The notes under the pieces are model-generated. The model searched no databases, was not told where the DNA came from, and saw nothing but the letters and a program-made list of their open reading frames with translations. Positions 9,296-11,301 of a stretch of 64,000 nucleotides of DNA are shown one piece after another. Numbering within the stretch: the stretch's first letter is position 1; each line of letters begins with the position of its first letter. The DNA comes from Kiritimatiellia bacterium (GTDB lineage: Bacteria > Verrucomicrobiota > Kiritimatiellia > RFP12 > UBA1067), in the NCBI GenBank assembly GCA_050949565.1, contig JBMNFY010000008.1, forward strand, positions 160,001 through 224,000, in the 5' to 3' direction. Made by a program: the position numbers and the translations under genes.

Positions 9296-9332
9296 ATCCC
9301 TCAGTCCTTAGAGCGTTAAACGTTTTAACTCA

Positions 9333-9363
9333 GAACGCTGAACGTCGAACTCTGAACTCCGAA
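9333..9363. repeat. Degenerate heptamer tandem repeat (GAACGCT/GAACGTC/GAACTCT/GAACTCC)
   Basis: Four 7-nt units seen directly. Confidence 0.65.
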
Positions 9364-9518
9364 GTGGAAAAATCCTTGCCTATAACTTACACGATCAAGG
9401 TTGTCCTCATTTATATTCCCGTGCGAAGCGCGGGCGGCGGGCTAACCGGTTACCAAAAAAGCGCTTTTCGCCATTCGCTATTCCCCCGCTTTGTGCGATA
9501 ATGGCGACCGGAGTTTGC

Positions 9519-10079
9519 ATGAATAAGACCACGCCATCCTTTGTGCGGAACGGGTACTGCGTCTCTTGCGACAGGGCTGCGGAGCGCCGGGCGATCACTT
9601 GCCCCTACTGCGGTGAGCAGGTCTGGCACCCCAGGGCCTGGCATGTGACGCGCTGGTGCGTGCTGCTGGCACCTGCGGTGTTGGTGTCGATCGCAGTGGC
9701 TTGGCTCACGGCGTCGCCCGGCTGGCACGCGATCTTCCATCACCTGCGCTCAGCGCCGCTGATCGCGGCTTGGCTCGCGGCGAGCGGTTTGGGTTTGCTC
9801 GTGCTGCCCGCCGATACGGACAGCAGTGCCGCAGGCGCGAAAGCCGACCTGCGCCGTCTACAACTGGAGGCCATTCTCGGCGGCATCGCACAGGCTTTGT
9901 CCGCCGTAATCGGGACCGCCCTACTTGCTGCCATCCCGCGTCTCTCTCTGCCCGTCCTGTTGGTCGGCTTCGCGCTTTTGACCTGTGCCGTGCTCCTACC
10001 ACGTTTTTTCCGCATTCCGTGGTGTCGGCTTGCCGCCGCTGCGGCATTGGCGATCGCCGCAGCCATCAGTATACTTTAG
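9519..10079 (+). CDS. Membrane protein with N-terminal zinc ribbon
   Basis: CVSC...CPYC followed by about five hydrophobic segments; start could be 9501. Confidence 0.75.
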   Translation: MNKTTPSFVRNGYCVSCDRAAERRAITCPYCGEQVWHPRAWHVTRWCVLLAPAVLVSIAVAWLTASPGWHAIFHHLRSAPLIAAWLAASGLGLLVLPADTDSSAAGAKADLRRLQLEAILGGIAQALSAVIGTALLAAIPRLSLPVLLVGFALLTCAVLLPRFFRIPWCRLAAAAALAIAAAISIL

Positions 10080-10210
10080 TACACAGTCGGTTTTTTATTC
10101 AAAAAAGACCCAATAACAACTCATAACATGTTGTAAGTCTTTGATTATCAACAAGATAGAAGACGGAAAAACGAGGTGAAAAAAATAGTAAAAAAATTAA
10201 ATTATGCCTA

Positions 10211-10240
10211 TTGACAAAACAGGGGTGCATCACGTATTAT
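10211..10240 (+). promoter_or_regulatory. Strong sigma70 promoter with upstream A-tracts, no downstream CDS
   Basis: TTGACA (10211-10216), 18 nt, TATTAT (10235-10240); A-rich UP-like region at 10178-10200. Confidence 0.8.
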
Positions 10241-10246
10241 ACACCC

Positions 10247-10406
10247 CGTTCAAACGACCTCCCCCAGGTTGATGAACAGCGTAGCCAGCGCGACACATTC
10301 CCCCGTGATTGCGCATACAGGTTTCCCCCCTGTAAGGTTACGCAAAATTATATATGTCCTCCCTGGCGGCGGGTAAGAGCTTAAGCTTTTATCCGCCGTT
10401 TTTTTT
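10247..10406 (+). ncRNA. Candidate structured small RNA with three C-rich loop hairpins
   Basis: Own promoter and intrinsic terminator; hairpins at 10248-10277, 10288-10314 and 10316-10334, the last two closed by 10279-10286/10336-10343; G-U pairs only on the + strand. Confidence 0.75.
10367..10406 (+). terminator. Rho-independent terminator
   Basis: 14-bp stem CGGCGGGTAAGAGC/GCTTTTATCCGCCG, TTAA loop, then T8. Confidence 0.85.
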
Positions 10407-11301
10407 ACCGCCAACGCTTGTGCGCCCAGAGATACTGTTCGGGATAGCGGCGGATCACGGCTTCGAGACGCCGGTTGATCTCGGCAAGCAGATCGGCGAC
10501 GTCGCGCTCTTTATCGCCTGTCGGCGTGAAGCGGATCGGATCGTCCGTAACCATGCGGTAATGGAAGGCGCTATCGCGGATGAATGCGCCGGCCAAGATC
10601 GGGGCACCGGTCTTCAGGTGCAAGCGCGCAGGCGAGGTGTGCGTGGATGCGGGACGTCCCATAAAGTCAACGATCACACCCTGCTTTCTACCGGCGTGCT
10701 GATCCATCACCAGCGTCATCGCCGCGCCGGTCTCCTTCCACTGGCGCAGCACGCTGGGCGCAAACCCCTGCTTCTTGGGAATGATCGTGATCGCGCCGCG
10801 GAAGTGATGTTTTTTCAGGAAGCGCTCGACAAGGGGGTTGTTCATCTTGCGCGCCACGGCGATCATCGGACGGGTGAAGGAGATGATCGTCACAGCCGCC
10901 TCCCATACGCCGTGGTGGCCGGAGAGGATCATGACCGGCATATCCGGCCGCTCCAGCAACAACTCGAAGGTTTCGGCGGGACCGTCGAAGACGATGTGCT
11001 CGCGCCAATTCTCCGCCGTCACTACCTGTCCCACCTTGAGTGCCTCCATGAGGTGGCCGGCCAGATGGCCGAAGGCGCGACGCGCGATGCGGTCCGCCTC
11101 CGCCGGATCATCTGTGATGCTGGCGCACAGGATATTGTCCACTGCGATGCGGCGACGCTCACGGAACAGCGGATAGACAAGCGATGCCGCGCCAGCACCG
11201 AGGGCATAGGCGCGGCGCGCCGGCACCAGCCGATAGAGCAGCGAGGCCAGCCATAGGGCAAGGTACTCCAGAAACCAAAGAAGCTGACGAAAAACCTTCA
11301 T
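10405..11301 (-). CDS. Lipid A biosynthesis acyltransferase (LpxL/HtrB family)
   Basis: GHHGVWE (HxxxxE), LVMDQHAG, VDFMGRPA and YPEQYLWAHKRWR. Confidence 0.9.
   Translation of the reverse strand: MKVFRQLLWFLEYLALWLASLLYRLVPARRAYALGAGAASLVYPLFRERRRIAVDNILCASITDDPAEADRIARRAFGHLAGHLMEALKVGQVVTAENWREHIVFDGPAETFELLLERPDMPVMILSGHHGVWEAAVTIISFTRPMIAVARKMNNPLVERFLKKHHFRGAITIIPKKQGFAPSVLRQWKETGAAMTLVMDQHAGRKQGVIVDFMGRPASTHTSPARLHLKTGAPILAGAFIRDSAFHYRMVTDDPIRFTPTGDKERDVADLLAEINRRLEAVIRRYPEQYLWAHKRWR

Follow-up and report, generated by a model that had tools for sequence, protein, structure and literature searches.

Results

The gene and its transcript

We analysed a window of 64,000 nucleotides (nt) from the genome of a Kiritimatiellia bacterium (genome G000; coordinates are positions in this window unless a contig or locus is named). 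It holds a small RNA (sRNA) gene that has a gene for a zinc-ribbon membrane protein upstream; on its downstream side lie a convergent gene of the lipid A acyltransferase type and then a TPR/TMEM260-like gene. Positions 10211-10406 on the + strand read as a complete, free-standing small gene composed of a promoter, a structured transcript and a terminator (Table 1). The evidence given below confirms the RNA as the product of a real, independently transcribed and structured + strand gene, its strand in vivo and its exact 5' end being deduced from the sequence rather than from reads. The gene has the general marks of a trans-encoded sRNA, namely its own promoter, its own terminator, no open reading frame (ORF) and a gene neighbourhood that is not fixed.

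An earlier description of this DNA by a model that saw only its letters and ORFs (the sequence-only reading) had singled out the same gene, and every sequence element that it listed is present in the window. The near-consensus promoter that it named, TTGACA-18-TATTAT, was recovered by a scan for consensus promoters with 11 of 12 matches. The terminator scan returned a hairpin at 10365-10400 followed by a T-run. The claimed terminator and its tract of eight U residues (U8) therefore exist, but the stem measures 16 base pairs (bp), four of them G-U, and not 14. In the same way, the proposed size of ~160 nt agrees with our estimate of ~159 nt, but judging from promoter geometry the RNA most likely starts at ~10248 and not at 10247.

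Table 1. Features of the sRNA gene and of the adjoining convergent gene (window positions; MFE, minimum free energy structure)
Feature	Position	Strand	Basis or remark
A/T-rich tract, possible UP element	10172..10210	+	upstream of the -35 box; UP function putative
-35 box TTGACA	10211..10216	+	promoter scan
Inverted repeat GGGGTGCAT-N8-ATACACCCC	10222..10247	.	covers promoter spacer, -10 box and start site
-10 box TATTAT	10235..10240	+	18 nt after the -35 box
Predicted sRNA transcript, ~159 nt	10248..10406	+	5' end from promoter geometry; 3' end at the U8 tract
Hairpin H1, loop CCCCC (10261-10265)	10248..10277	+	MFE; compensatory changes in 11/11 pairs
Three-way junction domain, closing stem GCGUAGCC (10279-10286) / GGUUACGC (10336-10343)	10279..10343	+	MFE
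Hairpin H2, loop AUUCCCCC (10297-10304)	10288..10314	+	MFE; compensatory changes in 8/8 pairs
Hairpin H3, loop UUUCCCC (10322-10328)	10316..10334	+	MFE; compensatory changes in 6/6 pairs
Single-stranded linker AAAAUUAUAUAUGUCCUCCCU	10344..10364	+	unpaired in MFE
Invariant putative seed AUAUAUGUCCUCCCUG	10350..10365	+	in the linker, just before the terminator
Rho-independent terminator, 16-bp stem, loop UUAA, U8 (10399-10406)	10365..10406	+	fold and scan
Lipid A acyltransferase-like gene	10405..11301	-	Pfam PF03279, E 8e-35; stop abuts the sRNA terminator

The stretch is present in 13 sequencing runs recorded as RNA (biogas or anaerobic-digester samples). In one digester metatranscriptome (run X4), the summed depth of contigs reached 13389 and 9480 in the two bins over 10212-10413 and only 25-52 in the flanks, so that contig depth over the gene is ~200-500 times that of its surroundings. 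A contig of 287 nt in run X2 covers 10120-10406 and ends where the U-tract ends. Runs X1 and X5 gave a flat, low contig depth with no peak, a pattern that in contigs cannot show absence. The evidence for an abundant RNA in digesters is thus good but indirect.

Distribution among uncultured Kiritimatiellia

The RNA is single-copy in its own genome. BLAST found it in 17 of 41 related genomes, G000 included; within the same family it was present in 16 of 24 genomes, whereas the 16 genomes from other families gave no match. An exact 19-mer taken from the linker occurs in 47 stretches of a collection holding one genome per species; nearly all of these records are titled as metagenome-assembled genomes (MAGs) of Kiritimatiellia/Kiritimatiellae, Verrucomicrobia or "uncultured Lentisphaeraceae", and they come from rumen, digesters, termite gut and groundwater. 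Once duplicates and one further row (L058) had been taken out, 46 distinct homologues were left for comparison. The dropped row is an observation in its own right: at the end of this public MAG contig (L058:1-46), an adapter-like sequence is fused directly to the sRNA gene.

A covariance model built from an alignment of the 23 closest sequences matched 17 of 151 genomes sampled across the order. These carriers belong to 11 of the 42 genera and to 2 of the 12 families. By family, the matches fell in 12 of 52 genomes of the window's own family and 4 of 33 of a second one, with 0 of 65 in ten others. A class-wide sample yielded matches in 3 of 151 genomes, all within the window's own order. The other orders sampled gave no match, which under strict filters and with many incomplete genomes reads as not found in those searched. 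The RNA is conserved in one group of uncultured Kiritimatiellia and was found only within part of one order.

The promoter is retained along with the RNA. TTGACA is kept in 43 of the 46 homologues and is replaced by TTGACG or TTGACT in the other three, a TAnnnT hexamer follows at a spacing of 17 or 18 nt in all 46, and A+T averages 67% over the 25 nt that precede the -35 box. The inverted repeat over the promoter, first seen as a minus-strand hairpin in the terminator and promoter scans, has arms that co-vary in one homologue (L002: GGAGCG/GCTCC), and in 12 of the 46 the repeat at this place is perfect over 6 bp or more. A dedicated repressor might use it as its operator. A search of the genome for a second copy of this palindrome, as a handle on a regulon, found none.

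A fold preserved while its stems change

The MFE of 10243-10408 on the + strand is -67.0 kcal/mol, against -36.9 +/- 3.6 kcal/mol for 200 shuffled sequences (z = -8.36), none of which equalled it; the minus strand folds less well (z = -3.87). The + strand MFE structure is exactly the arrangement that the sequence-only reading had drawn, with hairpin 1, a three-way junction holding hairpins 2 and 3, a linker and the terminator. It also bears out the claim that four of the five stems contain G-U pairs, which assign the RNA to the + strand. At several sites G-U is near-universal, for example at the base of the terminator, where it is found in 46 and 45 of 48 distinct sequences.

Folded singly, all 46 distinct homologues form three hairpins, a linker and a terminator, with stem sequences that are almost wholly different between clades. 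In a MAFFT alignment of the 23 closest sequences, 94.6% of the cells are paired in the named structure, and both sides have changed in 17 pairs as compared with 6.9 in shuffled alignments, none of 500 of which reached 17. The covariance model then aligned 51 homologues, giving 95.2% paired cells, as against 77.4% when shuffled and 37-45% when the partners were slid, and compensatory changes on both sides in 45 of 50 pairs. This larger alignment was fitted to the model and is biased towards it, but the single-sequence folds are independent of the model. Besides the hairpin counts of Table 1, compensatory changes were seen in 8 of 8 pairs of the stem that closes the junction and in 11 of 16 pairs of the terminator stem. 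The fold thus goes beyond chance, being kept across many genera while its stems change.

Consensus folding was tried and set aside. Given all 46 homologues in a MAFFT alignment, RNAalifold predicted the terminator alone, and on the 23 closest it mispaired H1 with a conserved CUGG. Because these consensus folds failed, the single-sequence MFE of the window was taken as the named structure.

Exposed C-runs and an invariant linker

What the stems lose in sequence identity, the unpaired segments retain. AUAUAUGUCCUCCCUG is identical in all homologues from the BLAST and covariance-model searches that span the region, except L073, which reads AAUAUAAGAUCCUCCCU there and keeps UCCUCCCU; the sequence of L015 ends short of it. 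These searches did not require that stretch. The mean unpaired probability of GUCCUCCCU across the 46 homologues is 0.85.

The loop of H2 is the most conserved of the C-rich loops, with at least four C in 45 of the 46 homologues. At least four C are present in the H1 loop in 30 homologues and in the H3 loop in 29, the remaining H3 loops being AAAA, GCGA or GAAAA, and a single C-loop is left in 9 of 46. In L017, L039, L060 and L070 the C-loops of both H1 and H3 are lost and the loop of the terminator reads UUCCCC or UUUCCC(CC) instead. Because the terminator loop turns C-rich where H1 and H3 have lost their C-runs, selection acts on the exposed C-runs and not on their position. The C-rich loops and the linker, to which the sequence-only reading had drawn attention, are accordingly both conserved and exposed in the homologues.

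Complementarity to the host's ribosome-binding sites

The genome has 60% G+C and uses a canonical Shine-Dalgarno (SD) sequence: AAGGAG and AGGAGG are enriched at -20 to -1 of 1323 confident starts, and GGAGG precedes 134 of these starts compared with 11 in a control window further upstream. A 16S rRNA encoded at a homologous locus terminates in CACCUCCUUUCU. Given this SD consensus and 16S end, UCCUCCCU and the C-runs are complementary to the ribosome-binding sites of this organism. Family searches for Hfq, CsrA, ProQ and KhpA/B found none in G000, which is 92% complete; that none of these four was found fits a G-C-rich pairing of the chaperone-free kind, since seeds of this type occur in comparable settings in other organisms.

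We give about an even chance to the reading that this is an abundant, trans-acting, chaperone-independent and multivalent anti-SD sRNA, with pairing and targets predicted from complementarity. Transcribed from its own strong sigma-70-type promoter and ending at its own intrinsic terminator, the sRNA forms a rigid scaffold, the 5' hairpin and the three-way junction, that displays one to three UYCCCC(C) loops. Behind these loops and just ahead of the terminator, the single-stranded, invariant AUAUAUGUCCUCCCUG would offer a further pairing module. The C-rich modules would pair, with no need of an Hfq-type chaperone, with the G-rich SD regions (GGAGG, GGGAGG, GGGGG) of several mRNAs. Binding of the 30S subunit would be blocked and translation reduced, possibly followed by decay of the mRNA.

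Searches for targets

The best start-region matches in G000 lie at an SppA-like gene (contig C17:103856) and a Skp/OmpH-like gene (C17:791322), with -25.3 and -23.2 kcal/mol. These two unrelated envelope genes, a peptidase and a chaperone, share a 16-nt word from SD to start, AGGGAGGAUAYGUAUG (C17:103843-103858 and C17:791309-791324), that is complementary to the linker of the sRNA. The translation start region of the neighbouring acyltransferase gene, compared across 27 distinct loci, shows neither an SD-like site nor complementarity to the sRNA.

One lead to a candidate target comes from a secreted GH141-like beta-helix gene (C17:552647-554875). Its SD is a run of four to six G in 11 sRNA-bearing genera, and the G-run is kept while the flanks diverge (orthologues L237-L246). 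The family has 7 matches in G000 and up to 12 in relatives. In 16 genomes that lack the sRNA no GH141-like orthologue was found at E 1e-150, and the sole sRNA-less orthologue (G021) reads GGAAGGAAAG at the SD, so the correlation between SD and sRNA rests on this one sequence.

Several results weigh against an anti-SD regulator. The SppA-like/Skp-like site is absent from the orthologues in 5 other sRNA-bearing genomes, and a pattern scan of 26 genomes recovered it elsewhere from two congeneric MAGs alone. In a two-genome test that set G000 against 2.4 Mb of genome G207 (826 orthologue pairs, threshold -16 kcal/mol in both), the real seed gave 6 pairs at or below the threshold in both genomes, the reversed seed 19 and eight shuffled seeds 0-3. 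Since the reversed seed gives 19 pairs to the 6 of the real one, there is no excess of targets beyond that of any anti-SD-like sequence; the test is crude, being made without accessibility, with uncertain starts and on about a quarter of the genes, and two of its top rows are spurious ORFs in rRNA. GGGGG SDs show no particular enrichment among proteins with export signals, assigned by a crude signal-peptide rule: their odds ratio is 1.5 (p 0.19), compared with 2.2 for GGAGG. The 16 invariant nt exceed what SD pairing needs. Finally, the expression data are assembled contigs, which carry no strand and no ends and give a rough level only, and sequences of related organisms may add to their depth. 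The interpretation given by the sequence-only reading is therefore supported in part, and its anti-SD role stays a proposal: the motif is the complement of the SD consensus in use in this genome, but the searches brought out no conserved target.

Alternative explanations

The RNA could instead be an abundant decoy whose UYCCCC loops and invariant 3' module titrate a protein that prefers C-rich loops, much as CsrB/RsmZ titrate CsrA, an idea also raised by the sequence-only reading. We consider this unlikely. Up to three hairpin loops show one short motif while the stems of the scaffold are free to vary, the apparent abundance is very high in one metatranscriptome, the invariance of 16 nt goes beyond the need of SD pairing, and conserved mRNA targets are not in excess, all of which a sponge would explain. 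No candidate partner emerges, however: searches of the 92%-complete genome for CsrA, Hfq, ProQ and KhpA/B found none of them, and we know of no bacterial global regulator that reads C-rich loops. Furthermore, nine of the 46 homologues are down to a single C-loop, few for a sponge, and the motif is the exact complement of the genome's SD consensus, a coincidence that a sponge does not need.

A broader proposal, which we hold to be distinctly unlikely, starts from the failure to find Hfq, ProQ, CsrA or KhpA/B in this lineage and makes the abundant RNA a new hub instead of a riboregulator of particular genes, either as a decoy for an undiscovered protein that reads C-loops or as a general mimic of the 16S anti-SD that would titrate ribosome-binding sites and set the global capacity for translation. 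It would fit because the 16-mer is over-long, 2 of ~50 loci lie beside tRNA or rRNA genes, and conserved targets show no excess.

The same two loci bear on the idea of a housekeeping or machinery RNA that binds the ribosome, 16S rRNA or RNA polymerase, or that titrates SD sequences as a general brake on translation. In one, the sRNA gene lies just upstream of and codirectional with a 16S-tRNA-tRNA-23S operon (L068:3189-6050), and in the other it precedes, again codirectionally, three tRNA genes with identical scores (L073:1053-1652). High apparent abundance, one copy per genome, a strong promoter and the invariant 16-mer also speak for such a role. The patchy distribution speaks against it, since a core component would be universal and the RNA was found in 11 of 42 genera, which fall in 2 of 12 families, and in none of the other orders sampled. 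6S RNA has its own gene elsewhere in the genome (RF00013, C10:123957-124133, 66.6 bits), and the fold resembles neither the rod and bubble of 6S RNA nor the internal-loop hairpin of helix 8 in the RNA of the signal recognition particle (SRP). Taken together, we judge a housekeeping role very unlikely.

SRP RNA was considered separately, as its apparent lack in this genome would favour a housekeeping reading. The models RF00169 and RF01854 have no match anywhere in G000, the sRNA site included, and RF00169 has none in five relatives (G007, G020, G023, G207 and G232), one of them a single contig, whereas control genomes matched; in most genomes 150 of the first-look candidates were scored, and an effect of the filter or a divergent SRP RNA may explain the negative. 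A crude search for helix-8 motifs in G000 also found no match. The sRNA itself was rejected as the SRP (4.5S) RNA: neither model matches at its site, it occurs in 11 of 42 genera only, and its sole GNRA-capped helix is the fully paired terminator, the loop of which varies.

The position of the gene raises the question of a cis-acting element of the acyltransferase operon, either an antisense RNA or a bidirectional terminator at the 3' end of the convergent gene. The terminator does abut the stop codon of that gene (10405), and the convergent acyltransferase/TPR operon is kept beside the RNA in about two thirds of the homologous loci. The synteny expected by the sequence-only reading holds to that extent, but the neighbours differ in the remaining loci and include genes for thiamin pyrophosphokinase, phosphatidylserine decarboxylase, purH, a methyltransferase, an oxidoreductase and an aldose epimerase. 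Since the neighbours vary, the RNA is a self-contained gene and no part of them. Next to such unrelated genes its sequence and fold are unchanged, and it overlaps the acyltransferase gene by ~2 nt only, which makes a cis-acting role highly improbable.

The earlier view that the region holds no credible coding sequence was upheld. Across the 46 homologues, the longest complete + strand ORF within the transcript has a median of 22 codons, and none of the reading frames is conserved. That the RNA encodes a small protein, or is a dual-function RNA with a peptide read from the ATG at 10354, is barely conceivable: this ATG does lie within the invariant stretch and opens a frame in the ORF list, but no SD precedes it (AAAUUAUAU), only 4 of 46 homologues have a stop in its frame before the transcript ends and in the other 42 the frame traverses the terminator, conservation is equal at all three codon positions with changes downstream that follow stem pairing and not codons, and the window's 300-codon frame is a shadow ORF antisense to the acyltransferase gene.

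Other observations in the genome

Two further observations concern repeats. Within the window, a GAAC-rich intergenic stretch at 9323-9376, between a PPDK gene and the zinc-ribbon gene (cagaacgctgaacgtcgaactctgaactccgaag), draws short, deep RNA contigs as well as long contigs that match by a 54-nt piece and nowhere else, which suggests a repeat or motif common to other organisms. Outside the window, a 38-nt word, GGGCGGGUUUUCAGGGAGGGCAGUCUGCCGCGGGGCCG, occurs at no fewer than 13 places on several contigs of G000 (among them C17:82919, C17:944251, C10:304730 and C6:200339) and a second word, GAGACGCUGCCGGGGAGGGCGCCGGGCAGUCCGUAGGC, at 3 places. Both look like a dispersed repeat or the end of a mobile element.

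Discussion

The RNA described here has very strong comparative support as a gene, and its resemblance to known RNAs lies in design and not in sequence. Rfam 15 gave no match at the gathering score in the 64-kb window. In E-value mode, the interval 10050-10500 returned chance-level rows only, snoR17 (E 6.6) and, on the minus strand, ylbH (E 0.36), the latter with 16.5 bits where the gathering score is 50. Ten other homologous loci contained matches to rRNA and tRNA only and nothing at the sRNA sites. This agrees with the statement of the sequence-only reading that it did not recognise a described family. In the literature, supplementary files lying outside the search, we found no report of a small regulatory RNA in Kiritimatiellia. 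Taken together, our analysis indicates that this is a previously undescribed RNA family, which would most likely work like alpha-r14/NfeR1 and RsaE/RoxS and is a member of neither.

Kiritimatiellia are widespread and mostly uncultured degraders of polysaccharides in digesters, rumen, termite guts and sediments. Strong comparative support and apparently high expression in digesters mean that the RNA could found an Rfam family and be used as a marker transcript. In a phylum in which searches for the usual RNA chaperones found none, it also offers a testable way to approach post-transcriptional regulation.

Among RNAs with repeated motifs in several hairpin loops, the CsrB/RsmY/RsmZ group shares this feature and high abundance. 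Those RNAs carry GGA motifs and bind CsrA/RsmA, whereas the loops here are C-rich, the motif stands in one to three of them, and no match to PF02599 was found in the 92%-complete genome. 6S RNA differs both by its separate gene, to which the RF00013 match belongs, and by architecture, the present RNA being a hairpin followed by a three-way junction. In Staphylococcus RNAIII and Helicobacter RepG, C- or C/U-rich loops contact G-rich mRNA leaders without Hfq. RNAIII is a dual-function RNA of 514 nt and RepG targets a variable G-repeat; neither is known to have the architecture of this RNA or its invariant linker.

The RsaE/RoxS RNAs of Firmicutes are closer. They too are small, abundant and well conserved and carry several unpaired C-rich motifs. 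With these motifs they pair with G-rich SD regions, in hosts in which Hfq has no role. The three C-loops and UCCUCCCU would provide the equivalent here, as several unpaired C-rich motifs complementary to the SD. The present RNA is longer (~159 nt), built around a three-way junction and from a different phylum, and it has no similarity to them in sequence or model: the RsaE model does not match, and the homologues are titled as Kiritimatiellia, Verrucomicrobia or "Lentisphaeraceae" MAGs.

The closest parallel in design is with the alpha-r14/cuckoo RNAs of alphaproteobacteria (NfeR1, CcsR/RSs0680). These are described as two to four adjacent hairpins whose stems vary freely and whose unpaired regions carry an identical anti-SD motif (PMC10746234, PMC4615179); the motifs are redundant, and NfeR1 acts independently of Hfq, silencing its mRNAs at their ribosome-binding sites (PMC10746234, PMC4615179). 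The shared trait is a set of variable, compensating stems around a conserved, unpaired C-rich motif of the anti-SD type. In our RNA the stems compensate in 45 of 50 pairs and the loop motif is kept, with the H2 loop C-rich in 45 of 46 homologues, a likeness of design and no evidence of homology. There are also differences. The alpha-r14 RNAs carry CCUCCUCCC in each of their two to four adjacent loops (PMC4615179), and CCUCCUCCC is absent from the present transcript, which has UYCCCC(C) loops and one UCCUCCCU in the linker. Two of the hairpins here are arms of a three-way junction, an extra single strand of 16 nt is invariant, the phylum is another one and no Rfam model matches. If the anti-SD reading is true, this would be the third independent invention of a variable scaffold with several C-loops, after alpha-r14 and RsaE, and would argue that such a scaffold is a general solution to regulation without chaperones.

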